Shown here in pieces: positions 5,684 to 63,413 of a DNA stretch of 64,000 nt. The position numbers were made by a program, and so were the translations under genes. Origin of the DNA: Tubiluchus corallicola (lineage: Eukaryota; Animalia; Priapulida); NCBI GenBank assembly GCA_030141605.1, contig JAQGDQ010000021.1, positions 186,001 to 250,000 on the forward strand, given 5' to 3'. Position 1 is the first letter of the stretch. Each line of letters starts with the position of its first letter. Under the pieces are notes generated by a model, which was given only the letters and a program-made list of their open reading frames with translations, had not been told where the DNA came from and ran no database searches.

Positions 5684-7398
5684 TAAATTTTGTTTGCTTA
5701 TCTGATAATTAGCTTGTAGTAGTATCCAACACTACTTGTTGGCCTAGCCATTTTACCTCATGCAAAAAATGAGTGGACATTAGTGGGAAATAAATTGTAA
5801 ACATGTTTACTTAGATGCTGATTTTAACTGCTAGTCTACAGGACAGGTCTATACGCAGATTTAAATTATTATTAGTGTATATAGTAAAGCAAATTAAATA
5901 TGTTTTAGCTGTGACTTTATTGTATAGTAAAATAATCCCGTGGAATTATAAAAGTTGTGCCATTTAATGCTTATTCACTTAACAGTCCCAAATTCAAATA
6001 CTGGGTCAAAATTTCTTCTAACTATTCCTCTTTACTTTCCGAAATTAGTAAGCTACATTGGTAATTTATTACTAATTTATCTGTTTATGTTCATATTGAC
6101 GAATATAATGGCTATACTGTTTTCTTTGCAGATAAAATTTTCATTGTCCGCAAAAAATTCTTTTATTTCTCTTTTGACTTTCACATAAGAACATAAATTT
6201 ATGAAAACTTTTTAAAGTTTTTTTTTAAATTTTTAACTCGCATTTTTTATATCATTTAGATAGCTACATATTTTACAAGGTGATTTTTGTGTCCAAAAGA
6301 CAGTTAAACTTCATTTCTGTGGCAGTGTACCACCTGCCGGCTCAATCCAGAATATTCTCGAATTGTGTCAAAATATTTGTTTAGGTTGTTTGTTGTGCAT
6401 AAGACATGTGGAGTCAAGGGCGGTTTTGTACAGGAAACCAGTATCATCTGGTTATGCATGGTTCAAGAGAAGGTCATTTATAATCCCGCAAATAATATAT
6501 CTACGAGATTAGCTCAATAAAATCATCTGTTGATCAATGTCATGCAAAGGTCAGTCCTAGAATGGGTAAATAAAACTTTAAAGCACAGTGCCGATGCTAA
6601 CAGTTTAATCTAAGTTGAATATAAACCAGTAACAAAATGTAATGCTAGAGCAACATTGAAGTACAGTTTAGATATTTAATAAAACTGTAAATTAAAGTTA
6701 TAATGTTGTGTAAATTAGTACTGAATATATCACTGAATGTATGCTTTTTAAAATGCAACTATATTAAAGTTGGCAATAAATGAAAAACTCATTATTAGGC
6801 CTACAAATAATTAAAACTACGATTTTCTGTTACTACCTGTTTCAGCAATATATATTGTGGTATAATTCAGTGGATTTCTATTCTTGCAAATTTTTTCATT
6901 ATAATAAATACAAGTTAATCAAGTTTTATTGATCTACAGAAATGTTCTTTACAAATCTGACTTTCCTGCAAATGCAAATAAAAATCGTAGAACTGGTTAG
7001 AAACCAAATTAAACAGGCTAAGTTTTCCTTGAAGTTTACTAAACTCAAAGGATTAAAAAATCAAGGTATTCTGATTATAACCCATTTGAAGATATACACT
7101 TGCATTATATAATTTAAATCTGATAATTCAAACACTATATTCATAAAATTAAAGATAAAATTATCTAATGAAATTACTTTGTCTGAAATTGATTATTATT
7201 ATTTTTTTTGGTGCCTGAGTGTTTAACATATGGCACGTATTTTTAATTTTGTGCTCACTTATCGCCTTTCTTCACTTTGTGGTAAAATACAATTACGCAG
7301 AACCTCGTTTTAAGAACGAGTTCCGACTTTCGTTATGCTGGTGCAGTGAATTATGGGAAACCACCGCATTCTTTAGAACGAGGTTCCTCGAAAATTGT

Positions 7399-10048
7399 TC
7401 AACCAAAGTTTTCCACTCTGCCGCTGCTGAAGTCTTCTGTTAGAACATTCATTCTGGATACAATGACGTCTTTGCTCAAGTACATGCCAGTTAAGTGACG
7501 GTGTACAGCCTGACCATCGTCCACGTACTGGCCACGACCATGCAGAACCCGTGTGTTGTGGAATGCGATTATGTCACCTATAAAAACATTTACTAATAAA
7601 AGCAGAGCTGAGTCATAGTAGATAGAATTGTAAATAACCGTCATAAGTAAAACCAGTTTTTGTATTGAAAACATTGCCTGCCACTGATAATTAGTTATCG
7701 TAGAAGGTGATTATTGGAGTCTTACCTGGCTGAAGTTTAATTTGAAAGAGGTGTCTTGGTTCATAGCTCAAGTCCCAGAATGTCCGCAAGGCACGGTAAA
7801 CATTGGGAATCTCTTCAACGGGTGCTTCTATAACTTGTCCTCTGATGTGATTGTTTAAGTGAATTTTCTCTACTGCTCCTTGCTCGTTCAATCTAAAAGG
7901 GACATCAGCTCATGTGTTATTTGTTTATAATTCTGGAATAACTTCATTATGAAATTCAGCATTATCCCAAAAGTACAGAATTTAAACCTTTCCCCAATTT
8001 TAGTCTTTGTTTTGCAAAGTAATAAGCACTGCTTATGCCATGAGTAGATATAAACTCTAATTGTGCTTAAAAAACCTCTCTGGCTACACTTCATTATTTT
8101 ATTTTATTTTAATCAAATCTAACAAGTCTGGTCTCCAGTACAGATTTTCTTTCGATTGCGTACTTGACTGGTTGCATTTTTAAATTTGTAAAAAAAAATT
8201 CCGTATTAAACCACTAGTCTGCTATGTGTCAAATTCACTCTGCACGAATAGTGAAAAATTTATTGAGAAATTAGAGTACTTGCTTTATGGGATAGTACAG
8301 CTTCCTAAGGTAGTATTTGTAATCACTTTCTTTTCCCTTGTCGAGGAATTGAATTCTAGTTGTGGTTAAGTACTCGTAGTCCTTGGGATACTCATGCTTC
8401 ATAACCTCAGCAATCTTGAAACCGTCTACAAAATGGTTCTCTCCGCCATTTGATGATTGGCCGATGCAGTGTAAGTACTGAAACTGAAATTTAACAGAGT
8501 CAAGGAACGGAATCTGCCTAACATAAGACTGAGTATGGGTATTATTATACTTAAGTGTTTGACTGCCATTTTTATTTCTCTTGAAGTCTGTGTATCAAGG
8601 AGTAACTTTAATGAGGCATCAGTATCTACTGAATCATTGTTTTTAAATATAGGATGTCCCAAAATTCACAGATTGCCTAGTACTGAAGAAAACAAACATA
8701 AAAACATACAAGACATAAACTTCTAATGAAGGGCAGCTGCAGTCAAACAATTACAAATACATCCTGCAGCTGCACAGGTAATTGTAACTAATTTTAACTT
8801 ACATCCGGTATGCAATAACAAGATGTCAGGTCGACATGCAGTCCCAGAAAGCTGTTAGTATATGCCATGTTATTAGGCGCTTGTTTTGTTATCACAGTAA
8901 AAAACCTGCTAAATATTGCAAGTAAAAAAGGTTTAGTGAGACTAAAGTACCTAGAGACAAAAAGAAATAGTCTAAGTTACATAACAGAACAGATTTATTA
9001 AAAGATGAAGTGTGTTACACAGTCTGCGTGATTATACTAAAGTGCTGTTAAGAATGCTGGAATTATTGAAAAATATGGAGGATAGTTAAAATAGAATAGG
9101 TGCGTTTTTTATGTTGTTATAGCCACTTGCCAGAATGATCAACGTCTTAAAAAGTACACATATATGAACAACACCCCTTCTTTCAGAAATTTACCTGTGT
9201 CTTGATCTGGTGTGAATCTGTGTTAGAAATAGTTTTTGATGCATTAAAACACTCATACTAGCTGAAAGGCTTTTGGGAGTGCCAGCACATCATATGACAA
9301 TTTACAACTTATGAGATTGCTAGCTTAAACTAAACATTCAACATGCCTTTAAAAATAAAAAAACTGATGTAACTTACCCATAGTGGGTTTCATTGACATA
9401 TCCCAGCAGCTCTGCCAATTCTGATAAAACGTTTTGCCTTAAAGGAGCATCCTTAATGAGTGCAATTCCATAACGCAGTAAAGACCCCAAGTAGTTATGT
9501 AGCACCTTGGTGTCTCCCATCACATCAGCATAATTACAACAATACAGAGAATTCCCGATTTTTTCCATGCCCCACAGTTCTTGCATGTAGTTGTCAATCA
9601 TCTGCCTTGGTTCTGCATTGAAGAAGTGTTGTTTACGTAGAAATTCCTGTTTGTAACAACTCTCACTTCCATCCTCCCATTCGATGTACAACTGGCCATC
9701 CTTCATTGATGCAGTTTTTGCAGACATGTCCAGGTTCCAGTCGGTCAGCATCAAGGTCCGTTGTCCATTGCTGGTGTTAAAAATCTTTGCACAGTTGTCC
9801 CGAAGCCATACAAGCGGATAATACATTTGCTGTCCATCCAACCACATGACTTCTACCAACTTATTTGACCTGTGGAGCGTGACTTTAACTGCTTCTGGTG
9901 GCTTAACACCCTGTATTGTCTTGCCTACGTATTTTGGCGCATTCTTCAACTGCACTTGTGGCAGTGCTTTTGCATGACTGGTGGAAATGTTCCTGTGGAC
10001 AATTCCAAGGGATCGCTGCAAAGAAATCCTCACGATGTTGCTAAACAT
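7399..10048 (-). CDS. BBOX1: Gamma-butyrobetaine dioxygenase (BBOX1)/TMLH-family 2-oxoglutarate Fe(II) dioxygenase, ~439 aa, 5 exons
   Basis: Exons 10048-9378, 8905-8803, 8483-8284, 7892-7726, 7577-7399 with consistent phases. Motifs YPLVWLRDNC, ETHYG, PNNMAYT..L.LHVD (HxD), QYLHC...GGEN.FVDGF, LQPGDIIAFHNTRVLHGR (distal His) and RHLTGMY (2OG-binding Arg). Closer to BBOX than TMLH by these motifs; exact orthology untested. Confidence 0.9.
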
Positions 10049-10181
10049 GTTTTTTACTGAAAGTAATGAAAGCTGATTAGCAATTTGATACTGTGTACAG
10101 CTACTAAAGTATTTATTGTTTTACTTCTCCTTGCTAACGCTTTTGGTATTGTGAACGTAATTAAACTTTGCGCGCTGAGCC

Positions 10182-21100: not shown

Positions 21101-24100
21101 CGATGCCAAAGTCCACCCACTTGGCGTCAGGGAGGTCTCTGGGTGAGAATGACTCAGTCTCGTATACTGAAAAGGTAATTGAACATGCTTGAAAGAAAAT
21201 GAAGCCATGTAGGTAAGCAAATTGGCAATAAATGTGACGGGCTTCATTTATACAAACAGGAACAAGTCAGCTACATGCCCATATGAATAACAAATCCAAC
21301 TGCAATTTGACTTGACAATGTGGCTTAGTGATCGCATGGTCAAGTTTATAGTGCCCTTGGTTGGTCATTGCTTCCCAGCTTTTGCAAAAGGATAAATGGG
21401 TTCCTTTGTTATGTATAACTCGGAAATTAAGCATTATGGGTGAGCATCCAATTAGGCTTGCACCAGTTTTTTGTTATTAAATTGATTTGAACCTAAAATT
21501 CTGCATTCCAATAACTCAGCATATCAATTACATGCATTCTATATCATTAAAAGTGTTTAAAGCATCATTCAGTCAATACATATTAGTTGTGATCTCTCAG
21601 AATAACTCAAGTGTTACATTAAGTTTCTTTCGCATGTTATTGGTTTATTACTGATTCGAAAAGTCTAAAACTGAATTCATATTTGATGAGAATTCAAAAT
21701 TTTGAAATTCGGTTTGATAAAACTAATGCAAAAGCGCAGTTCAATTTGAATTTGATTTGTAGCAATGTTTCACATGCCATACAGGCATACACCTAATTCT
21801 ACACTGTAGAACTTATACTAATCATGTTCCATTGAACACAAAAAGTGTTGCCTTTTATAGAGTGTAAAATGGTATACAGTATTAGAAGCAAGTAAATATC
21901 AAAAATAAGACTGTGTAATGAAATGTTTTTCAATAATCATATCTGCATCATATTATAGTATACAAATAATGCCTAGTTTAAGGGCAATATTGCATTGATA
22001 ACCTAAAGCATTGTCACCAACAGCACTATTCCTTAGGTTGTAGGCCGAGGAATTAGTGCTGTCGGTAATAGTCCAGACAGTTATAGACGCACAGACATGC
22101 ACTGTTGTCCAAAAAAACTAGGGATTACTTGTAATATTATTTATAGGCTACCCTATAGTTCAAATGATAGTAGCAGTATTAGCAGACCATTGCTGTGTCT
22201 TTGCTTGAACTTGAACTTCACATTTGATGAATCTATGAGTCATATTGATTGTATTTATTCCAAAACTGGTGTATAATGATTGAAAATAAATTCTGTAGAA
22301 AAACCCGAGAAGGCGATTTTCACAGACGTATCGTATCATGACATTTTTATTTTCCACAACACTAGCTTAAGTCAAATAATGAGCCTGTTGCTTCAGACTA
22401 AGCATTGCTAGAATGACATCTCTTATAAAACTTCATAGTATTAGTTAGAAGTTAGCTAGCTATTCATTAGGCAACATATGTTATTATCTAACAATTATTC
22501 AGAAACAACAAATCAAGTGAGTCACTACTGACTTAATAATATGTGCATTGGTGTCTCAAAACATGTAGCCTAGTGAAGTGACTTGAAACAGAAGGCCTGC
22601 CCCCACTGCAATGTGCTTGAACACTCACCCGAATTTGAGTCTTTGTCTTTGCTCCACAATGTATGGAAAATTTGGCTGCTAGATGGTGTAATAAGAGGTC
22701 GAGGAGATGGCACCACTCTCTGAGCATCAATGCTCAAGTCTATCACAGTCGACGTCATTGTTTTATTCCTGGAAAAATTAATTCAAAGCCATATTTATTT
22801 GTATTTATCAACATTTGTTAACTCTTGGTATGAACTAATAGGCATTGTTAGTAGTCAACTGCCATTCACTAATTTACTTTTACAATGGATACTTACACAA
22901 TATTGGTGATACAAAACATTGCAGAAAAATATTACCAATGCAAACTTTGCCTAATCCCTGCATTTTTGCCATAAAATGGAGTATTCTATAAACCACAGAC
23001 ATCTTATGTCATATTTGACTACATTTTCCAACTTTGTCATTTTCTGCCATCACAATTTGCCCGCTTGATCAGCCCACTACCAGTATTTGTCGCAGTAATT
23101 GATATTAGATGGCAAATTTTCTGCATGGGGACATGCTGGAGTGTTTCAGGTGAATTCTTATCAGTTTCACATTTAACTCTTGGACTTATCTAAAGCGTCA
23201 TCTAAAAGTAAGTGTGAGTATGATCTGTGATCACGTTTGTTGTAATTCTCACCAATAATCATAAAATCTTGAAGCTGTAGCAGGAGAAACTTGAGTTACA
23301 AACCGCAAACTGCTAGTGAACAGGGGTCCGAACTAACCTGAAACACATTCAAATGCCCCATTGTGGTCCACTACCACAAACAATTTATAATTTAACTTAC
23401 GGAACAATTAACGTGGCCCATTGCAAAATGGCGACCCATTTTATGCGTTGTGTGCTATTATTACAAGTTGTCAGGAACTAAAATACATCTGTATTCAGAC
23501 TTATTAAACATTGTTTTCGGTTATTAAATTTAGAATAGCATGGTAATGTTTGTGAAGGTCACAAGTTTGTCTGGGTTTACTACATACATGTACCCTGTAC
23601 CACAAAAATCTACAGTCAATGTGCAGACAGCCTGCTAATAAGTGTACGTTGTACCACAAAAATCTACAGTCAGTATGCAGACATATGTAATAAGTGCTTC
23701 GTTTACCTCTTTGTTTTGTTAATTTCTCTCTGTAAGGCATCCAGTCTTGGGAGTGGTTGCGGTATCACTCTAGGTTTAGGACGGGACAACCGTGACCACA
23801 CATCCTCTTTACTGCTGTTTGGTATAATAGAACTCGACTTTGCCCTAGGTATTGGTGATGGTGTTATAAGCAAGTCATTCAGAGTTTTCCCATTTTTTTG
23901 TACTACAGATGTAGAGGCATATTTGCTGTCGTAAGCTGCATTGACTGAGCTACTTCGCACGACTGCAGCTTTGTCAAACATATTTAGGCTTGTATCTGGC
24001 TGCAGTCTTTGCACTGGATCTTCAAGACTCTCTGTAGCATTACTGATTGTTGCATCAGAGTCATTATCTATGCCATTATCGTCGCTGTATTCGCTGACTC

Positions 24101-24557
24101 TTACTAAAATATCATTTGCCTTTTTTATGATGGGCAATGATTTTGAACTGTTTAATGTATGCTTTTTGTCACTTTTTTCATGTTGCTGATTTCTGATAAT
24201 ACAAAACCCTGCATTTTTGTTTTTACTGATAGAGTCAACTTTTGCTTTTCTTAGTTGTTTATTGGGTGAGCTTTGTCCTTTGAAACTGGACGCATTAGCT
24301 TCATTTTTTGGCTTGTTTGGAAGTCGTGTAATCACTAGATCATTACTCTCGTGTCTGCTCGAGATACTAATTTCAGCGGGCATTTCTGAACTTTTTAAAT
24401 AGTCTTCTTTCTCAGTCGATATTTTTGCTTGCTCAAGACGACGCACTACTGAGTGTGTTATGCTCAAGACCGGAAGTTGCACGTTCTCATCTGCCTGATG
24501 CTTCACTATCGTGGTGTTTTTATTGTTCTTGGGTCGACTTCTCTTTTGATGTGACAT
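15169..24557 (-). CDS. Uncharacterised 462-aa Ser/Lys/Pro-rich, probably disordered protein; 5 coding exons
   Basis: Exons 24557-23707, 22768-22629, 21166-20974, 16021-15900, 15251-15169, all GT-AG. Phases 2/1/2/1 chain into one 1389-nt ORF ending ...EDEDPRKVYFQILNELSAKIDS*. An in-frame TAG sits immediately before the ATG. No domain recognised. Confidence 0.8.
15423..15642. mobile_element. MITE, CAGGGTGTTTCA-terminal Tc1/mariner-like family (copy 1)
   Basis: TAGGGTGTTTAATAAATCACT ... AGTGACTTTTGAAACACCTTA. Shares CTAATTTGATTTTCA and TTTTTAAAAATAAC with the element at 63575-63988. Confidence 0.65.
18601..19976. mobile_element. Non-autonomous DNA transposon with long TIRs (Academ-like, tentative)
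   Basis: Ends TAATCCGTCAGCC / GGCTGCTGGACTA. The inverted match includes TTTTCTCATGTTCTGATGGTCC..TAAGAATATTAAGG. Flanks TACT/TATT are a near 4-bp TSD. ~36-bp tandem duplication inside the left TIR (18642-18713). Superfamily guessed from the TAG..CTA-like termini. Confidence 0.75.
23597..23683. repeat. Short direct duplication in an intron
   Basis: TGTACCACAAAAATCTACAGTCA.T.TGCAGACA occurs twice, 53 nt apart. Confidence 0.75.
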
Positions 24558-30500: not shown

Positions 30501-31316
30501 CAGTCTGGCTTCTGCGAAGCATTGGCTACACAGGTGGTAAACATGTTTACGGAATTTAACACCTGGAAGGCTTCCTCTCCCAATCAACACTCGTAATTTT
30601 ATTTTAAGTACAAACAGGTGACGTAGGTAATATCGTGAAAAGGGATTCGTCAGTAAATGGATCACTGGAGCATTTTGGACAGGTAGCGAACAGCGATTAA
30701 TAGCCTAAATTTTGGAATGATGAGGAAATACAGGTGACTCCAACAGCCGTAAAGAAGCAGTACTCTAAAAATCTTATATTTTTGCCCGAGGATGGCGTTA
30801 TATAGCTGTATATAGAAAATTAGTCAGTTGCAAAGATTTCTTGAATTTCGTAAGGGCAATAGGTCAACGCTTATCAAGAGTAGATTCGTTTCCCAGCTAA
30901 AGGCTCTCCCGTAGAGAAGTTTTTCCCCAGAAAAACTCATCAAAACTTTTTTTGCCAGAAAAACCTACTTCTCAGAAAAAAGATTTTCCCGGAATTGCCA
31001 TTTCAGGCATATGAGGGTAGACTCGTTCCCCAGAAGAGGTTTTTCGCTGGATGAAACTTGGCATACTTATTCATCTTGGGGCGTGAAGAATAACCGAGTG
31101 GTCACGATATGTACTTGCCTACCGAAGTTTAGGAATGCCGAGCCTTCCAAATTTTTTACTACGGCTTAGGAATCTCACACTTGGGAGGCTTCTTTCACTA
31201 CAAAGCCGAATCTCAGCCAAAAACGGCACATCATGACTGTCTGCTGTACTTCATGCCATTGCGTCATTTTCAATCATTCTGGGTCAATTTTCAATCATTC
31301 TCAGTCAATAAATATG

Positions 31317-32560
<1,244 letters not shown>

Positions 32561-33291
32561 TATTCTTCCGCTGTAGATCGATCTTACGATTCAGAATCTA
32601 TACGTGCACTCGTACAGGCATAAATTAGCCTTCTTAATTAATTAGAGCGGAAATGGATGGTCGCATATGATTATATGCATAGTAATGGAATACGTAATAA
32701 GAATTAAAATATTGTGTAATTTGTGTTATTCACTAACGTCACTCTTGCCACAGACCTGCTGATTTCTTATTGGTGGTGTTGTTAGTAGTAGTGGCGACAT
32801 TGGTGCTATTGCTACTGGCATCGCTTCATCACTTTGCTCGTTGATATTTCCGTCACCACCGAAGTTGAAATAATTTCTGTATTGTAAATTGTTACTTCAA
32901 GTTTGATTAAAATATTTAATCTGAGATTATAAATTTTGGTTGTGAATGCTGTGAGAGACCTCATTGAACTTTTAACATTTTGTCAAATAGGCTGAGTAAA
33001 GCTTTAATGGCAAATGTAATGATATGATGGCGATCCTAGTTCAAAGTCAAATTCATCTTGTTAAAATGTATTTCTCATTTTACACGTAAATTATTCTTCT
33101 GTCCTGCGATATCATTGCAGTTGACATTCATACATGACACTAGAAGTATAGGTTCGGTCCTTGATAGAGTCAAGTGTCATTACATAACAATTATTATGAC
33201 TTACTATATGTATTATATGCAGGCAGCAGGTGTATTGTTATACGTACTTGTATTAGCCTATTGGTCAGCTACAGCTAACATGCATATATGG

Positions 33292-33541
<250 letters not shown>

Positions 33542-33836
33542 CAGGAAGAGGCGAAATCAGAAAAAAAGTGTTGAAGAAAGATGACGGTGCTGGACGACAG
33601 AAAAAAACGAAAACAAAGATTTCAGAAATTCTTACCTTACCTTGTTGCAAATGTACAATACATTACTAGTGTGATACGAGTATGTTGATATTCTTGAATT
33701 AAAATCACGAATAAGAGCAAAATTTTAGCCTTACCGTCGCACTTCAATGTTTACGCTCGATGCTTTCTTTCAGCACACTGTGACTGTCAGAACAGGTAAT
33801 GCAATTAAATGCACGTGTTTATTCACTATCTATCTA

Positions 33837-52191: not shown

Positions 52192-55100
52192 ATGGCAGGA
52201 ATTGGAGGGATACTACTGCTAACTGGGTTTATCTTGGTTATCACTTATTTTGTGTTGAAGGAATTTTGGCCAAGTCGATTTAAAACATTGGTGCATAAGA
52301 TACCTGGACCTCCATGTATCCCGTTTTTTGGAAATGCGCATCTTATAAAGCGGCATCCAAGAGGCAAGTAATTTTGTATTTAAATAAAAAAGACACGTGT
52401 TGGACATTGATTACGTTACGAATTTGGGAAATAAATTTTAGTTTGGTTTTGAGCCATTATTTGCTAAATTGCAAAGTAGACATGAGAATGAGCTGTTGAG
52501 TTTTTTAGGTTTCTGGGTCCTCATTGCATTTCAGACATTAAAATCAAATGGAGATTAGAATTAGATCTTAAACTGCTCTAGGATTGGCTCTTCTTTAATT
52601 GAATGGCAGTGGCTAGAGGTACGGATCCGTACTCGTACCTATTTTTGCAACAGATACGGATCCGTGCTTTTTGTGACATTTACAAAACATACGGATTTTG
52701 ACAATTACGACATACGGCGTTTGACCATGTGCCCAGCATACATGCCCACTTCATGAAAATGGTGATATGGCATTATACAGCCTGGACCCGTACCGTTTTT
52801 CTTCGGTACCATTTTTCTTCATCATATAATAGTTACAGTGTAACTTTTGTGCACTGTGAGTGTAGAATGCTCATTTAGTAATGCAGTAAAGCACTTTGAC
52901 TCTTCAAAAATAAACTTTTAGAATTTTGCATTTTGTAAAAAATGTTCTAACTGAATAATTAAATTTTAATAATTTTGCCACTATGCAGACAATAGCTCAC
53001 TGTTGTTACAATTTCCTTAGAGTTATATGTAAAGTAACAGAACTCCAGTAAAAAAACATTTTATGATTATTAAAAGTTAAAACGGGCATGCACAGTAATT
53101 GGATATTCACATTCTTTTTAAAGATATATATCAGTAGAAATATTAACTAACGTCAAGCAAGTACCCTAGAACTCATGCAATCTATTGCATTATTAAATGT
53201 TCAAGCACTAACAATGCTAATTAGTGAGATAAAACTGTTACAATGGGAAGACACATATGCATTCAATTGGCAATATAAACATATTCATGTCAGAAAAAAT
53301 TAAAAGTTCAGCATAATATAAGAAAAAAGTTTTTTTAATCTTATCTTGTTGTTTTTCGTATGCAAACGGGGGATAAACGCTTCTTTCATACCAAAAATAG
53401 GCTGACACTATGTTTACGCTATAGTAATAAAGCATGACTCGCCCACCGTAATATGACGAAGTGTTGCGCGCATTCACCGCGTGTCCTATCTAGGGATTAC
53501 GTAGTAATATAGATGTCTATGAGGATATTCAATTTCACTCAATCCGTGGATCTGGCAATTGTGGATTTTGAGGTTGCGGATAAACGAGAAAGGGATATAT
53601 TGCCCCTCTCTGATGGCAATCCGTATTTCTCATCAATATCTTTCGCAGTACGGCGATCCGTATCTTCTCGTCAATATCTTTCGCGGTACGGCGATCCGTA
53701 TTTTCTCGTCAATATCTTTCGCGGTACGGCAATCCATATTTTCTCGTTAATATCGTTCGCCGTACGGATTGATCCGTATTTTCTAGTGAATGCTTTCGAG
53801 ACACGGATCCGTACTTTTAGTTGCTGCAGTTCCGGATACGGGTCCGTACCTTTTGTCACTGCCTAATTGAATTGGGTCACATGCACAATTTTCTCAGATC
53901 CAAATTGGCTACCTTTCTCTTGATAACCGCTATTGTAGTATTGTGTTTTAAATGTATATTTTTTGCATATATGAGTGTGTTTTGACATTGCAAATTTATA
54001 GCTTGTTAGATACTAATATGGCAGTAGGAAATAGTAAAATTAGAACTACTATTAATGTTCGTGTTTAATTTTACTGGTAGTGGTTCAGGTGAATAAAAAT
54101 AATATTTTTACTGTAGTATATTATACATAACTATAATATGTACAAGTATTTATTAGTGGCCGTATGTTGTTTGATCAAAAATAAACCTTTGGGTAAACTT
54201 TGTTATCTAAATATCACTACTGACCTATATATTATTATTTGAAGATGAAAAGATTATGATCACTTCACTCGCATCTTGGCTTATGTAATTGGACTTTGGA
54301 ATTTCGTTAGAGAAGACTAGGTTGCTGTGTACACTGTACTTCATGCATAGCGTAAAAATATATAGCCCTACTGGCTGAATCCACACACTGTGTGTTATTT
54401 TGGTCACCATTTTAGATGTCGTTATTCAGATAGAGTGCGGACATTGATGTTCGAACTGGGGGCTATCCTAAAATCTGTAGAAAGACATATTTGATGACTA
54501 TATGTAGTGGAATGTCCTAAAAAGTGCTATTTTGGCCACTATATTACGAGGAGGTAGACCCAAACTGACATTGTTCTAAAACCTACCCAGGGTCATGCTG
54601 GTTGTTATGATACACCACAGATAACTAGTTATAGTAGGACAAAATGAAATAAAACAATAGAATGTCCGAAAAAGTGCTATTTTGGATGCCACAGAGACTC
54701 ACAGAGTCAGATTTCCATCTATTGTTCAAGTAAACCCTAAAGTATTTAATTGTGGATGTGCAAAATAATTGAGTTGTGATACATCGTTGACACTTATTTG
54801 ATATTATAAGTATGACTGCAATATCATGCGTGCTTTTAAATAGATGACTTTAACCTCTAATAAGCTAAAGCCTACAGATTGTCTTACTCCTAAGACCTAA
54901 GGTCAATTTTTAGTCAGCAGAATTAGCCTCTCGTCTCATTTCTGCACTATAAAGCAACTTTGTCTTGATTGTTATTTAGGCCATTGATTCTCTTTTTTGT
55001 TCCGCACTCATTTAAATTTGTGTTATAATGTTTTCAGAGTTTTTTGATCAGGTAAACGATTGGTGTAAGAAATACTGGCCTGTTTGCAACGTAATGTTAG

Positions 55101-58100
55101 GAGATTCGCCACACGTTTGCCTTTGTGATGCTAAAAGTATTGAGGTGAGTGTGTGTCATCTGGTGAGCGTGAGAGGAAACTCCATAGTACAGATTGTGAG
55201 TGAGTGAAATCGTAGTTAATGCAAAGCTGGCAGCTTTCTATTTTTAGTTTTTTTGTTCTCCACTCCTATTTGTAATTATATTATGAAAAAACTTACATTT
55301 ACACTGATTTGAATTGTTTTTTTAGACAATGATAGTTTTAGCTGATTAGGAATTCTAAAAATTATAAAACCACTAATTGCTTTGGAGCGTGATAGTTAAT
55401 AAATTGCAATACATTTCTAGTTTCTTTATTTATTCACGCAACGTCTTAGTTAACTCACACCATTACATGAAAAGCTCAGCACTTAGTCAAAATAAGTAGG
55501 TGAAGGTGCAACTCATCGAACCAATAACTCAGATCTTTCACCATTCTCAGAAGTGACTGAAAGTAACTGGTGTCATATTCAGGGCATCTTGCAGGTATTT
55601 TATGAGTTTGTTTTGTAAGTACTGGTTAGAAATGAGTTGTTTTTATACTCATGGTAGAAGCTGTTTCCAAAAGTGGCAAACCTTTTTTAGTATTTTCCGT
55701 TGTGGCCATTTACACTGGCAATACGAGTGCTTGTAAACCTGTACACTAATTAGTAAGTGTGTGTGAGATCCTACTTTGGTTTCGATTGCGTTGTTCTATT
55801 ATTTTTGTCTGTGTTATTACCGTAATTGTTCAATAGTTTCAAACTTCAAAGTTTTAGTAACTACTTCACCAATAGTTATGGTACCTGCCTGTATTACAGA
55901 AAAATAAGAAAAGTTCTCTATCCTCGCATGGTGGATTTAGTGGTAATGCTTTTCCATAGTTGATATTCAGTTTTTAATCAGGTAATTTTGATCAGTTAAT
56001 CAGAATGCTAATGTGTGGAATGCAGGTCTTTTGTGAAAGCTGTCATGGATCTTGGTTGTTGTCGCTGGATCTTTAATGCTGAACGTGGATGATTCTGACA
56101 GTCTAGACTATACTAGTTGTATTCATGAGTAACATGTTGCCTGGATGAAATTTAGTTAATCAATTGCTCTCGGTCTTCTGTGTCAGTTTCTTGCTTAAAT
56201 AGGTTGTTGTATCTTGGCTTGTGAATGTGGCTAGAAACAATTTTAGTGGCCAGGCTTTAACAGTAAAGATGTACGTGTTTTTACATTATAATATGGAAAA
56301 TTTGCATAATTTCAGAGTTCTTTGAGCAGTTGATGGGCTGGTGTAAAGAATACAGACCTTTTATGAAAACTTACCTGGGTTTTGAAGCATGGTGCTGGGT
56401 TTTTGATGCAGAAGGTGTCGAGGTGAGACAGCATATTCCCTGCACCATTCCCAAAATTTCACATATGTTGTGACAATAACTGTTCCTGATGCTGTTTTCT
56501 AGATTATTGAGCTTTTTTAGGGGCAGGTGATGTTTTACCAATTAGGAAGCAATTGAATAGAGTACTAAAACAGCTGCTTTGAGTGTAGCTTTACTAATAA
56601 TCGTATTAAGCGTTTTGTCCAGTAGGGTCAACCGAGGAAAAAAGGGCCAACCAGGGAAAAGTATATTATCTCTGTATGATCTATTTTCTCCTGTTTATTA
56701 GCCCTCTTTCCTTGGGGTTCAATTTTTGCTGCTGTGCTTTAGCTAAATGGAGTTTCCTCTCACTTTTCAGAGTTCTTCGAGCAGATTGTGGAGTACTGTA
56801 ACACATATGGTCCGTTCTTTAAGGGGTTGATAGGCAATCAGCTTATGGTTGTTTGTATGCGAGCTGAGACTGTCGAGGTACAGAATCCGAAATTTTGGCT
56901 TAAGATATGGGCAATTAAGAAAATATCAACAATATAATAATGTAAACTGGAAACTTTGCCCTTTCAAAACTCGTTTTCTGGAGCCGTAATTTTGTCCGTT
57001 AATAAAGGTTTGGTAGTTTTGAATGCATGAAATTCCTAGTTCTTTGATTCTTTTGTTATAAAATTATGGTTTAATTTATAACTGAAACTGGCATGTTTGC
57101 GTGAAAACTAAATTACACTGTTTTTAAATTTGACAGCTTTTTAAATTACATTTTTTAATATTGTAAAAAGCTTTCAAGCTGAAAGTATTTTTTGCTCTTG
57201 GACTGGAGTATCTACACCATTTTTGTCATGGTACATTTTTCATGACATCCTGAAATTATGGTTTTATCATTCAGTTTCATAGAAATCTAGATTGAGGATG
57301 CGAAAAGCAGAGAAATGTACCACTACAGTATCGGCTTTGACCGAAATTTATTAGTTAAATATGGTGTTTTACTATCATCGTCTACTAACTATCATCTACT
57401 AATCGATTTTTTGTTTTTTGTTACATTTGAATCATTGCAAATTCTTACTAATTATATCATTTTTAATCACTAGCTTGTGAATCTTTTAATAACTGAAGTG
57501 AAGAAATATTCTGCTGTTTGTGTCTACTAATAGTGTAGAGTTTCCGCTGAATTGAATTGCTAGCAATTTTTTTCTGATTTCAGAAATGTAGAAAATGATT
57601 TCCTGTTGATCTGCTGTACATGCCTTTAAAGTTTTAGCAGTTGTGAAAAAATGATGTTTACACATATCCAAACTTTATCTTAGTTTGCGTGTCATGTAGT
57701 TTTCAACAGCTATGTAACTGTGTGGAAATATTAAACGTTGTAAATTTTTAACTTTTGTATTATGATTATGTGAAATGGTAATTTTGTGTAACAGTTCTTC
57801 AGTATATTTAATGAAACAAATATTCATTGAATTCATGTAATTAATGTAATTCATATTACGTAGGTTGGTATTGGTAAGTTGTTAGGTTGACTGATTAGTT
57901 TAATTATTGATCACTAATTACAGGCAATACTCAGCAGTTCCAAGCACATTGAAAAGTCGCGCGATTACGAACCACTTCATCCATGGCTGGGAACTGGCTT
58001 GTTGACTAGGTAAAAATTTACATCTCGTAAAAGAATGTTAAAGTCTACAGACACCAAATGGAATGTTAAAACATATTTAGTATTACCTTGATTTTTAGAA

Positions 58101-61100
58101 ATATACTTAGGGATTTCCGTGTGGAATTTCCGTTTTCAGAAATTTTCATATCATTTTACCATCTGTTATATATGTTGTAAATTTTGTAATAATTGCTGTT
58201 GTGAACAGACCAGCGTTTATGTTTATTTTGTTATTTGCAATTGACACTTTGTATGTCAATGTGTCGCATAGTTTATGTTGTTGCGTGTACGCTTTACGTG
58301 TATAATAAAAACTGACATTTTTTGCTCTAACAAGGTAGATCTACACAGAAGTTTTGTAATCACAATAATTTTGTGTTTTAGCACAGGTAAAAAGTGGCAT
58401 TCACGTCGTCGATTGTTGACGCCAACATTTCACTTCAGCATTCTCAATGACTTTATCGACGTTTTTAATGAACAAACGGAGATTTTTGTCAATAAACTCA
58501 AGGGCGCAGCTGATGGGAAAACCATTAACATCTTTCCCTACATAACCTTATGTGCACTTGACATCATATGTGGTTCGTATTCTCCCTTCCCCTTCAGACT
58601 GTCTTTAAATAAATAACTTGCATAATGTTACTGCTTAACAATTATACTGTTCTGTTCACTTTTTTATTGACCTTTTATTTTGTTTCTTTTTATTTGGTAT
58701 AAAAGCAGTTAAATTAAGTAGAGATAGTTGTATTGGTCTTAAAGAAAAAGTTCAAAGCCTCTGGTGTTTCTAATTATCTTTAGTAACAAGTTTGATTGCT
58801 AAATGCTTTTAAATCTTATTTTAAGTAACTTATTTTGGTGCGAGAAAGTCTGAACTACTGCAACTAAAATGATTTTTGCAGATGCTGCCATGGGCATAAC
58901 AATGAGTGCACAAGCAGAAAGTGAATCAGAGTATGTTAAAGCAGTTTACAGGTACTGGCATTTCTCACTCATTTAACTTTTCATTGATCATCTTCGTAAA
59001 AGCTATGTTAAATACTGAAATAAGTCTTACATTATTCTAGTGCTCTTCTTTTGGTTCTATTGGTCCTTTGCAAAAGCTGAAGTATGTCAGAGTCTTTCTT
59101 TGTCATCTGCGCTAAGCTCCAATAAGTCACCTAAAATCTTGGATATAGTTGCATTGTTTGGATTGTTTCAGGCCATATAAATATTATGCTGAACAAATAT
59201 CGACCATGTTGCATCATTTTTGCTAACTGATTTAGAATGTGTCAATCACTCAATTCTTAACCGTTTCCTGTTGCCTTCAATTATTTATTTATTGTGTGAG
59301 AATTTTGCTTGGTTTACTTAGTATGCAGCATCAATATAGCTTCAATGACAGCGTCAAAGCTAGTACTTTGTTGACAGGCTGGGCTTGCTAGTGCAAGAGA
59401 GGCAGAAACAACCGTGGTTATGGAACGATTTTATCTACTTTAACCTTCCTCCAGGCTGGGAGAGTAAGAAACTGATTAAACTGCTTCATGGTGTGACAGA
59501 AAAGGTATGTGTTAATTTTTTGCATTTCTTAAAATTCATGTAGCTGTGTGAGACAAAATGGCATAAATAAATTGTTAATATTACTGGTTAACTTCTCATC
59601 AATTTAAAGACACATGGCATTACTAATCTGTAATAATAATTAGGATTGTATGGTCTTGCACTGAACCACTTCAAAGGAAAGGCCAAGCCTTCTGAAAAGT
59701 TGCGTTTATGTAAATGTTTGTGAAAAATGTCAGAAAGATCTGGTAATAAAAGCCTTAAGTAGTAAAGTGTGATAAGCGCCTCGTGTAATTAGTACAGTCA
59801 CTTTAAAGTCACGATCATCACGTTGGATGAATTGGCTTTCAAAATGGGCATTCCCATTTTGAAAGCCAATTCATCCAGCAATGACGTCATTTGTTGATTG
59901 AAGAAAGGTAATACATTGTCAATTTCCAATAAATGCATAATCAGTTGTAAAAAATTAGATAGCTAATTTTGTGTTATATATGTATAAACGTTAGGTAGGC
60001 TGCAGAAGTTTGAATTAGTTTAAGGAAAGCCATGATTGGTTTAAGAAAAGTCACAAAGTCCACCAGTTACATCATAATTTTCAAGTGAATGTCAGGTGTC
60101 ACCGCACCTGAAAATTCCTATACAGCAGTGTATACAGTTTTTTGCAAACTTCTTTCTAAGTCTTTATATTTTTCTAAGTTTAAGTGATAACAACAAAATG
60201 TATTGTATTGTATTGTATTGTACAGTACTGTGTTTTCACTGTTTTGGTTCTTATTTTTTTTGTTTGATGTGGCTCATTTGTCTGATGTGTGGGCTGACAG
60301 TAGTTTAGAATCCCACTACTGATTTTTCGCTTCAGGTAAAGCTTTCAAAACTTACTTATCTCTAGTTTTCTGTAGATGATATTTGATTTGTTGAATGCCG
60401 AAGCAGCCTCTTAAATAATAGATGAATAGTGATTGACAATAAACTAGAAACACATTAGAACTTGTTGATGAATGTTTAGGTGATTCGTGAGCGTACTGCT
60501 ACACTAAAACAGCAGCATGACGAGCATCGTGTTAAAGAGAAACATGGAGAGGCTATACAGTATGAGTTGATTGGGAGCCGTAAACGCTTAGCTTTTCTAG
60601 ACATGTTGCTGCATGCATCCGATGGAGGAAAGACTCTGTCTTTTGATGACATTCGTGAAGAAGTTGACACATTCATGTTTGAGGTATATTCCATGACAAA
60701 AAATTGTATATCTTGCATTTTTTATCTGTGCAACGGTTAACAAGCTGTTATCATCATAATCATCATCATCACCATCGTTATTTGCACCATTCTTTTCATA
60801 GTAATTAGCTGCGTTATTTATACTGTGGAAAGCTGTGGAACTAAATTATAAGGTATTTAGATGTGGATATACTTTTGTTGGTTAGTTCTGGTTTTAAATA
60901 AGCCAAAGTCTGTAAAGAGTTGTTGCTTATGGGCCTGTTCAGATGTAGAGACTTCTTTTGCAACTTCTCTCAGGAAGTTGCAAGTCATTCACACTTTGCA
61001 ACAAGTTGCAAAAGAAGTTGCCAAACCATTCACACATCGCAACTTTACTCTCAGAGAGAAGTTGGGAGAGGAGCCTCTACATCTGAACGTGCCATTAGAT

Positions 61101-63413
61101 ACCTGCCTTTTCTCTTAAGATTTAATAAAGGATGCATCAAATATTCTCCCATAATTCTCACCATACATTTATCACTATGTGATATCATTGACAGTTGAAC
61201 TGTATCTATTACCATGGACAGTTAAAGATTTAAAGACGGCCTATATAATATGTCCAATATTCATTTTAGCCATGTTGATGGAAATTAATGATAGAAAATA
61301 TCCTATAATTCAGGTTTTTAATGCACCTTAACATTTAGGGACATGATACAACAGCAGCTGCTATGGCATGGGTGACACATCTGATAGCTTCCCATCCTGA
61401 TGTTCAGACCAAACTACAGAGGGAAATGTATGACATCTTCGGTATGCTTTGTAGTCTTGCTTTGAATGAAATCACTAGATAAATTAATTTTAGCAAATTA
61501 AAGTTTTCAAGAGATTTTTTGTCCATAAGAACAAACGTTTAATAATAATATGTGTAATGGTTAAACTGGGTTAGTTTTACATTACTGAGTTACCACTCAT
61601 AATTGTACTCTTCCGTGCTTTGTCGTTTAATACTGTGTTAATACTAGGTATGAGAATTGCTGCTAATGCATTACCAAATTAGCCTATTAAAAAGAAACAT
61701 TTCAACCTGTTTATTATAGCCTACTGAAAAGAATCATTTTTACTTGTTTATTAAACTAACGATTTGTGTAAGATTGTGTCCTTATATTGCAGCTACTTGA
61801 TTAATTTTAATTGCAAAACTAGTTGTATACAAACTGCATTTCTATCATGCAGATTATGAAGGTGTGGTCGCAACTCTGGAAACCAGACAGTTATAATAAA
61901 ATTCGTGGCACATGCTCATTTACATTCCATACATAACATACAGGACTTTTCTCATAGTTTCCATACAACTACAGTTTAATAAGTAAATTTACTGCCTCCT
62001 TGATGTAGTCAAAGATTATTTTTTGTTATCTGTGTAATCTGGTGCAAATTGTATAAAATTAGCAAGAAAAATTCCAATACAGTAGTGTTTTACTTGTGCT
62101 TTGCAGCATAAGCGTGTACATTGTAAAATATTCTAGAGATACTAGTGGTGTCAAGGCGAAACTAAATGAGCTTATTTTTGCCTGTACAAGGCATTTCATC
62201 AATTTTTAAATATGATATAGTTAGCAGCAATGTTTAAACTGCATCTACCTGAATTTTGCCTTCAGTGCTGCTTTAAAGGCTAAGTGATCTTTCTTCGTAT
62301 GTGCTTGTGAATGCTTGCCTTATATTCTCTTATAGGTGATAGTGACAGGAAACCAACGATGAATGATCTCAAAAACATGAAGTATTTGGACTGTGTTATA
62401 AAGGTATTTATCTATAAAATTTTAGCTAGCTTGTACAGTGATAATGATTATATAGGTACAGTATGGACTTGAATGAGAGAAATAGATTTTGGTAATGGAG
62501 AACACATTATTAATGATTATAAACTTACAGTCATCATCTAATCATTATAATATTGATATTTAAAGGAAAACCGGATGATTGTGTAAACACGAGTTCAGAA
62601 TAAAGAATGCTGTAAAATATTGAAAACTACAATTGCTTATTTTAAATCAAAGCTTAGATTTAATAATAATTACCTCGGATACTCAAATTTCATAAACTGT
62701 CAAAGCTACGTGCTGCTCAGTGAATCTAAGATTGGCAGCGGTGCCTTTTTGTTACGTGCGCGTGGCCGACAAATAGAAGGCGGTACCGTGATATCCATGA
62801 TCATGAACTGCTGTGTTAGTTTCATGACATCATATGATGTAAAGTCCATTTTTCGTGACATCATGCGATTAAGCAGCACTGTAACACCTATGCAAATGTG
62901 CTTGACACGCAAGGAAATACGCCTGCCATTGCACAAACTGTGATTAGTTTCTGACGTAAGCAATAGCTGTGTTCGGTTGACGTTAATTGACTTTCTAAGC
63001 TAATTATTCAAATACAAGGAACAATTGTTAACTTTTATAGGCAAGAAAATGTATATTTTGGACAGTAAATTAAAATGTGATTGAGTCTAAACCACCGATC
63101 TTCCTTTAATAATCTTGAATTTAAATTAGAACTGTGTCTATTTAAAATGGTTGTAACACGGTAATAACCGCCACATGCGGAATTGGCTTAAAGCAACATT
63201 CAGATTTTTAGTAAATTGCCAGTTTGGTAAACTAAACATAATGGCAAATGAGAACTTCTATTAGGCTTAATTAAATGCCAGTTGGAAATTTTTCTTTAAG
63301 GAGTAATTTCATCAATATATTCCTAACTAATTGCTTTTATTTATAGGAAGGTCTAAGGCTATTTCCATCAGTTCCAATGTTTGCCAGGAAAATAAATGAA
63401 GATTGTGAAATCC
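52192..63413 (+). CDS. CYP4: Cytochrome P450 family 4 (CYP4V-like), 3' end beyond the window; exon 2 triplicated
   Basis: Exons 52192-52363, [55038-55144 | 56316-56422 | 56771-56877], 57924-58009, 58382-58572, 58882-58951, 59378-59504, 60480-60683, 61339-61441, 62336-62403, 63347-63413. N-terminal TM anchor, IPGPP..PFFGNA hinge, [28 protein letters not shown] (WxxxR), [25 protein letters not shown] (CYP4 I-helix signature with Glu), [17 protein letters not shown] (ExxR). PERF and the heme Cys are not in the window. Confidence 0.95.
52605..53863. mobile_element. Non-autonomous DNA transposon with 9-bp TSD (Mutator-like) in CYP4 intron 1
   Basis: Exact TSD TAATTGAAT at 52596-52604 and 53864-53872. 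Imperfect TIRs GGCAGTGGCTAGAGGTACGGATCCGTAC / (reverse complement) GGCAGTGACAAAAGGTACGGACCCGTAT. Recurrent ACGGATCCGT palindromes. Confidence 0.8.
53615..53814. repeat. Minisatellite, ~5 copies of a 38-bp unit inside the transposon
   Basis: Unit GGCGATCCGTATTTTCTCGTCAATATCTTTCGCGGTAC, head-to-tail with no spacers. Confidence 0.9.
55038..55144 (+). CDS. CYP4: CYP4 alternative exon 2a
   Basis: TTTTCAG|...GAG|GTGAGT, 107 nt, (E)[35 protein letters not shown]. Confidence 0.9.
56316..56422 (+). CDS. CYP4: CYP4 alternative exon 2b
   Basis: ATTTCAG|...GAG|GTGAGA, 107 nt, (E)[35 protein letters not shown]. Confidence 0.9.
56771..56877 (+). CDS. CYP4: CYP4 alternative exon 2c
   Basis: TTTTCAG|...GAG|GTACAG, 107 nt, (E)[35 protein letters not shown]. 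Confidence 0.9.
59824..59877. other. Perfect 25-bp inverted repeat with 4-nt loop in CYP4 intron 6
   Basis: TGGATGAATTGGCTTTCAAAATGGG-CATT-CCCATTTTGAAAGCCAATTCATCCA. Confidence 0.9.
62564..63105. mobile_element. Kolobok-like MITE (TTAA TSD) in CYP4 intron 9
   Basis: TTAA at 62560-62563 and 63106-63109. TIRs AGGAAAACCGG / (reverse complement) AGGAAGATCGG. CpG-containing core. Confidence 0.6.

Follow-up and report, generated by a model that had tools for sequence, protein, structure and literature searches.

How one gene might supply several enzymes that differ in a single short segment is the question raised by a cytochrome P450 locus of the priapulid Tubiluchus corallicola. The locus lies in a 64,000-nt stretch of contig JAQGDQ010000021.1 (assembly GCA_030141605.1, positions 186,001 to 250,000), hereafter the window, whose own numbering is used throughout. 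A CYP4V-like gene in this window carries three tandem copies of its second exon, which the original prediction, made from the sequence alone, had taken for a cassette of mutually exclusive exons. We consider it likely that one gene yields three enzymes here: the exon 2 copies would be spliced in singly, giving proteins with a shared core that differ in a 36-residue segment at the mouth of the substrate channel and in substrate access or preference, and exclusion would be brought about by an RNA stem together with transcript decay.

Structure of the gene and age of the exon 2 copies

The three copies, 2a (55038..55144), 2b (56316..56422) and 2c (56771..56877), lie on the plus strand, as does the rest of the gene. 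Each is 107 nt long, is preceded by TTTCAG, starts with AGTT, ends with GAG/GT and carries an open reading frame from phase 1 to phase 0. The introns between the copies measure 1171 and 348 nt and have ordinary GT donors. Exon 1 (52192..52363), which holds the ATG, a membrane anchor and a proline hinge, closes in phase 1. If it is joined to any single copy and to exons 3-10, an open frame of 398 residues runs to the last exon in the window; without a copy translation stops after 66 residues, with two copies after 98-112 and with three after 98. Recomputation thus reproduced the exons as originally described, their pairwise identities (given below) and the frame logic, in which exactly one copy restores the frame. 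The donor of exon 1 is of the GC type (GAG/GCAAGT, 52364-52369) and lies directly 5' of the alternative cluster.

Downstream of the copies follow exon 3 (57924..58009, 86 nt), exon 4 (58382..58572, 191 nt), exon 5 (58882..58951, 70 nt), exon 6 (59378..59504, 127 nt), exon 7 (60480..60683, 204 nt, with the first half of the CYP4 I-helix motif), exon 8 (61339..61441, 103 nt), exon 9 (62336..62403, 68 nt) and exon 10 (63347..63413, 67 nt, with the K-helix ExxR). The gene model spans 52192 to beyond 63413, and the heme-cysteine exon and the 3' end fall outside the window. One contig of run X2, which we guess to be RNA, joins exon 6 to exon 7 across a GT..AG intron, indicating that the gene is spliced. 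This run matched only parts from exon 6 on and gave no matches to the cassette at 80% likeness, so that it is uninformative on exon 2 use.

Judged by its sequence, the gene belongs to the CYP4 clan and is CYP4V-like. A search with exon 4 gave 59 matches among 70 candidates and brought up proteins named CYP4V2 or CYP4V2-like, and the constant region is 56-60% identical to CYP4V2-like proteins of bivalves, a limpet, an annelid and a hemichordate (top value about 60% among the proteins fetched). A representative search found no close relative, none being nearer than 52% over the constant region, and a search with the three exon 2 peptides returned nothing among 23 candidates. The translation contains the glutamate I-helix motif of CYP4 (across exons 7-8) and the K-helix ExxR (exon 10). 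The gene's neighbour in constant-region trees is the annelid Owenia, in a grouping that is not starred (90/76, in a tree from which a motif filter had removed 18 rows; 94/68). The intron positions match those of human CYP4V2, for which the exon table of PMC6679682 gives exon 2 as c.215-327 (113 nt, listed once), exon 3 as c.328-413 (86 nt), exon 4 as c.414-604 (191 nt), exons 5 and 6 as 197 nt together and exon 9 as 45 codons (135 nt); the corresponding values here are 86, 191, 70+127 and 68+67 nt for exon 3 onward. The 135-nt human exon is divided in T. corallicola by an extra intron (62404-63346), which a metagenomic homolog described below apparently does not have. The product is a predicted membrane P450, with the putative fatty-acid omega-hydroxylase activity of the CYP4V-like class.

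The exons flanking the cassette had been held to be single copy, which spoke against a gene duplication, and this proved correct: when a profile of 76 CYP4V sequences was searched against the 2918 open reading frames (ORFs) of the window, every other exon matched once. No second exon 1 was found in the 64 kb (best score with the exon 1 profile 47.5 bits, next 8.2), and a six-frame profile scan of the 64 kb revealed no fourth copy of exon 2 (known copies 104-116, next stretch 12.7). The occurrence of a single exon 1 speaks against separate promoters or first exons for the three copies, an arrangement that would suit two observations on related proteins: some database isoforms start at or inside exon 2 (P0060, P0050, P0203 and P0208), and fish CYP4V isoforms swap their first exon. 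As the copies are 50-57% identical in DNA and their introns are unrelated, they are not haplotype duplicates, which argues against collapsed genes. DNA run X1, which contains 2a and most of 2b together with their flanks, speaks against an assembly error. We regard separate promoters, collapsed paralogs and misassembly, even taken together, as a very improbable source of the cassette. Over exon 2a (54996-55146) there is none among the differences listed for run X1, and among the 40 of its 347 differences that were listed, seven of the eight exonic ones checked are synonymous.

Between copies, amino-acid identity is 14/36, 11/36 and 15/36 and nucleotide identity 61/107, 56/107 and 54/107, with 10 of the 36 residue positions invariant, in the pattern originally given (E-F-F-x-Q...C..Y.P......G.........A...E). 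The proportion of synonymous differences (pS) is 0.74, which is saturated, and that of nonsynonymous differences (pN) is 0.38-0.45 across all three pairs, both values being comparisons of paralogs only. Third codon positions agree in 12-16 of 35 codons and second positions in 22-25. With synonymous sites saturated and frames intact, the copies are old and maintained, with purifying selection acting on each. The alternative that use is limited to one or two copies, with decaying 'detritus' exons from local duplication making up the rest, would fit the lack of RNA cover of the cassette in the runs searched, which leaves use of the copies unproven. It would also fit the absence of a YTRAY branch motif within 120 nt of the 2c acceptor, a motif that the constitutive exon 9 lacks as well. 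Such decay is at odds with length, frame and both splice sites being intact in all three copies at saturated synonymous divergence. Moreover, when neutral drift of a copy to 75% identity was simulated with substitutions only, both splice sites and the open frame survived in 78-172 of 2000 runs. Neutral survival is thus 4-9% per copy even at that identity, and two idle intact copies are unlikely. Sets of three versions in a crab and in Lytechinus, described below, also count against decaying exons, an explanation that we consider improbable.

A candidate RNA stem and the proposed exclusion of copies

A perfect 17-bp complement links the intron after 2a, where its left arm (55169..55185, plus strand) begins 24 nt past the 2a donor, to the polypyrimidine tract of 2c, part of which is overlapped by its right arm (56747..56763, plus strand), ending 7 nt short of exon 2c. 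Exon 2b sits within the loop. At up to three mismatches the pairing is unique in the window, and in 500 dinucleotide shuffles the region yielded a 17-bp pairing once. The extended stem has a free energy of about -33 kcal/mol, the next-best partners lying at background level (-18 to -19). Among 132 donor-by-acceptor windows it was the best (-47.2, mean -19.6), and 3 of 2000 shuffles equalled it. The weaker pairing that the same intron region can form to the 2a acceptor is at background level (-18.5), and local folding upstream of 2c is ordinary (z -1.1). Transposon ends are not favoured as the origin of the stem, which is unique in the window and has no flanking direct repeat. Steric hindrance and U12-type splicing, two mechanisms of mutual exclusion listed in the available text of PMC6071210, were also considered: exclusion by short introns is unlikely at the intron lengths given above, and no U12-type donors are present.

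We infer that all three copies are spliced in this animal and that the candidate stem functions in their splicing. One copy at a time would be included, giving three membrane P450s with a common catalytic core. With the stem formed, 2b would be looped out and the acceptor of 2c masked, so that 2a could join only exon 3. Transcripts with zero, two or three copies would be frameshifted, meet an early stop and be removed by nonsense-mediated decay; for the exclusion of 2b and 2c from one another, decay alone is offered in this proposal.

Exon 2 isoforms in other animals and their history

Alternative versions of the exon 2 segment were looked up in 30 clusters of related proteins. Thirteen clusters carry them, one is an older model of one such gene and one could not be scored. 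The other 15 (gastropods, a hemichordate, sea stars, Diadema, unionids, pearl oysters, a tunicate, urchin paralogs and an unnamed set) have a single version, further ones possibly just being unannotated. Among 19 isoform pairs picked by name and length, 16 pairs from 15 species (12 bivalves, Owenia fusiformis, Strongylocentrotus purpuratus and Lytechinus pictus) show 13-26 differences, all inside the segment and none elsewhere; examples are XP_021354815/XP_021354817, XP_030835600/XP_030835603 and CAH1794292/CAH1794293. RefSeq isoforms rest on aligned transcripts. As for the three remaining pairs, one from Pecten differs at one other site and two from Alosa differ in exon 1. The mitten crab Eriocheir has three versions, for which GenBank (one entry), RefSeq (one model) and Logan (a contig of 1.9 kb) are the sources, and its three pairs differ at 21, 26 and 29 positions inside the segment and at none outside, bringing to 16 the species with isoforms that differ within exon 2 only. 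Three versions are also found in L. pictus (X1, X2 and a partial X3), and gene model P0127 of Mytilus edulis holds two in tandem. The view of the cassette as a one-off of the priapulid does not survive these comparisons, the same segment being alternative in bivalves, an annelid, a crab and echinoids, and three-way in two of these animals.

Two further patterns of variation were seen among the isoforms. The Alosa pairs P0124/P0138 and P0125/P0137 have an apparently homologous alternative first exon, with 38 differences upstream of exon 2, apparently a second case of N-terminal swapping within the CYP4V subfamily. Isoforms X1 and X2 of an S. purpuratus paralog (P0148/P0370) differ at nine positions, all in residues 470-510, which suggests alternative homologous last exons.

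None of the 11 loci found in a metagenome scan has the cassette. One of them (L001:2860-9213), on a metagenome contig, is a complete CYP4V-like animal gene whose intron plan agrees with that of the window gene and whose one exon 2 measures 116 nt. A scan that recovers all three copies of the window found one exon 2 in this gene, hence the cassette is not universal.

In trees of exon 2 (38 columns), versions are common to oyster genera, to scallop genera and to both urchins, and the duplications are therefore old within oysters, scallops and urchins. The two Mytilus versions are sisters (96/86), as are two of the crab versions (95/94). The same trees contain no starred group of cassette exons that crosses phyla, and deep relations are not resolved in them. 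Exon lengths differ by lineage: 36 residues for each copy in the window, 39 for both in Mytilus, 35-39 in the crab and 38 in most others. Approximately unbiased (AU) tests rejected neither a single clade of the window trio (p 0.296) nor one of the crab trio (0.274) nor a cross-phylum grouping of 2c with scallop exons (0.219), values (p 0.22-0.30) at which the tests have no power to choose among histories. Six changes of cassette label on the constant-region tree were not used, the labels for absence being unreliable. Taken together, lengths and trees favour duplications particular to each lineage, or turnover inside a cassette that is old.

As far as these alignments go, exon 2 swapping is either ancient or recurrent, and not confined to T. 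corallicola. We see an even chance that CYP4V exon 2 is a swappable substrate gate across Bilateria, either ancient with turnover or repeatedly duplicated anew, that CYP4F3 converged on the same solution, and that the stem in T. corallicola picks among three gates for different lipids or xenobiotics. An ancient gate would mean a multi-exon cassette kept since the split of protostomes and deuterostomes and not seen in vertebrates, and a recurrent one at least four duplications (in this animal, in mussels, in the crab and in at least one of scallops, oysters and urchins).

Predicted function and known exon-swapping systems

The AlphaFold2 model of scallop isoform P0067 (predicted local distance difference test score, pLDDT, 87.5) served as a stand-in for the proteins of the window. 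Exon 2 corresponds in this model to residues 57-94, that is, a helix (55-68), two strands (74-79 and 82-87) and the start of a further helix (90-97), which we take, from standard P450 topology, to be helix A, beta-1 and helix B. The nearest solved structure, the top PDB match of the model, is CYP4B1. The segment is thus predicted to comprise helix A and the two beta-1 strands, as the original prediction had it, and in addition the first half of helix B. In human CYP4F3, according to the accessible text of PMC12784423, alternative exons exchange residues 67-114 (helix A, beta-1 and helix B) on one catalytic core, helix A and beta-1 lie in the access channel, and the CYP4F3A and CYP4F3B forms differ in their kinetics with arachidonate and leukotriene B4 (LTB4). 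By analogy, the three isoforms, differing in 36 residues at the channel mouth, may differ in substrate access or preference.

Alternatively, with all three exons in use, what sets the isoforms apart could be membrane docking, stability, coupling to the reductase or tissue control, and not substrate preference. Helix A and beta-1 are partly membrane-embedded and helix B is on the proximal, redox-partner side (PMC12784423, same text), and most changes between isoforms with duplicated exons are conservative in the available account of PMC9741552. In the present case just 10 of 36 positions are common to the copies and strand residues are strongly changed, and CYP4F3, the only tested P450 case in the sources at hand, showed changed substrate kinetics. 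A difference unrelated to substrate is possible, and in our view somewhat unlikely.

Several points weigh against three enzymes of differing substrate preference from one gene. No transcript of this animal was seen over any of exons 1-5, so that the three inclusions lack direct support. The complementarity of the stem is known from this one sequence, run X1 covering neither arm; searches for a second, competing partner of either arm gave nothing above background; an unrelated pairing between two acceptors (those of 2c and 6) comes to -44.2; and five further perfect inverted repeats of 17-30 bp, probably transposon ends, occur elsewhere in the window. For the 16 other species, tandem exons are deduced from isoform names, confined differences and P0127, not from genomic DNA. 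The kinetic differences in CYP4F3 are modest, about 6-fold for arachidonate and 2-fold for LTB4 in the text of PMC12784423, and the segment also touches the membrane and, via helix B, the redox-partner side, so that isoforms could differ otherwise than by substrate. Mutually exclusive use, as originally claimed, is therefore upheld in part: frame logic, saturated pS, the isoforms of 16 species and the candidate stem speak for it, and junctions from exon 1 through one copy to exon 3 in this animal are missing.

Among known systems, exons 3/4 of CYP4F3 come closest: in this member of the CYP4 family, too, the alternative exons are homologous to each other and lie internally, where the P450 domain begins. 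Unlike here, where the substrate effect is deduced, function was tested there, and 48 residues in two versions are exchanged instead of 36 in three. The two cassettes share neither subfamily nor exon boundaries, and orthology fails. Given these boundaries and the dating of the CYP4F cassette to Catarrhini in the available text of PMC4494069, the cassette of the window is of separate, convergent origin, in agreement with the independence originally proposed. Vertebrate CYP4V2 proteins are the best-named homologs and share the intron plan, with exon 2 running from phase 1 to 0; in contrast to the three copies and extra intron here, the human gene has a single exon 2 (table in PMC6679682), and the fish isoform pairs examined vary in exon 1, not in exon 2. 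The CYP4V-like isoforms of scallops, oysters, mussels, Owenia, Eriocheir and echinoids vary in the same segment only, whereas their exon length varies by lineage and they are known as database entries.

Regarding exclusion, intronic pairings mask a 3' splice site and polypyrimidine tract in ATE1 exons 7a/7b (10.1101/2020.06.04.134791, available part), and looping-out models have been proposed for the docking-selector systems of Dscam and 14-3-3 (PMC6071210, available text), from which the present case differs in having one candidate stem without a significant competing partner. An alternative exon also switches enzyme substrate choice in invertebrate coq-2a/coq-2e, an unrelated prenyltransferase with two versions and demonstrated function (PMC7434440, available part). 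Subscription papers and supplementary tables aside, no prior description of a CYP4V exon 2 cassette was found in the literature. For gastropod CYP4s, splicing was merely speculated upon in the accessible text of PMC3022543, and PMC9741552 documents convergent tandem-exon events in other families, the available main text making no mention of CYP4. The human counterpart of the exon carries several missense variants of Bietti dystrophy (table in PMC6679682).

Other elements were noted in and around the gene. Intron 1 contains a miniature inverted-repeat transposable element (MITE)-like element (52605-53863) with 36-nt terminal inverted repeats (78%), an inner 38-nt unit repeated 4.8 times and raised depth in run X1. 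High-copy repeats occupy 59800-60250 in intron 6, which includes a perfect 25-bp hairpin (59824-59877), and 62560-63090 in intron 9, with X1 depths of up to about 900 and 21,000, respectively. Elsewhere in the window, the minus strand carries a gamma-butyrobetaine hydroxylase-like gene (7376-10120; 248-aa ORF, PF06155, E 3.8e-10) with further exon-like ORFs downstream, and a 284-aa low-complexity ORF (23706-24557), probably an exon of some gene, without a match in Pfam or a confident one in Atlas. Long (GA)n and (GT)n microsatellites lie at 31300-31500 and 33270-33660.

Descriptions of human P450s treat CYP4F3 as a special case. If the proposed use of the exon 2 copies is true, swapping of the helix A/beta-1 gate would be a recurring strategy of the CYP4 family in molluscs, annelids, crustaceans and echinoderms. 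The dozens of natural isoform pairs and trios, 13-29 residues apart on a fixed core, would then allow a direct test of access-channel specificity, and studies of CYP4V expression in oysters, mussels, crabs and urchins would pool distinct proteins unless they are exon-specific.

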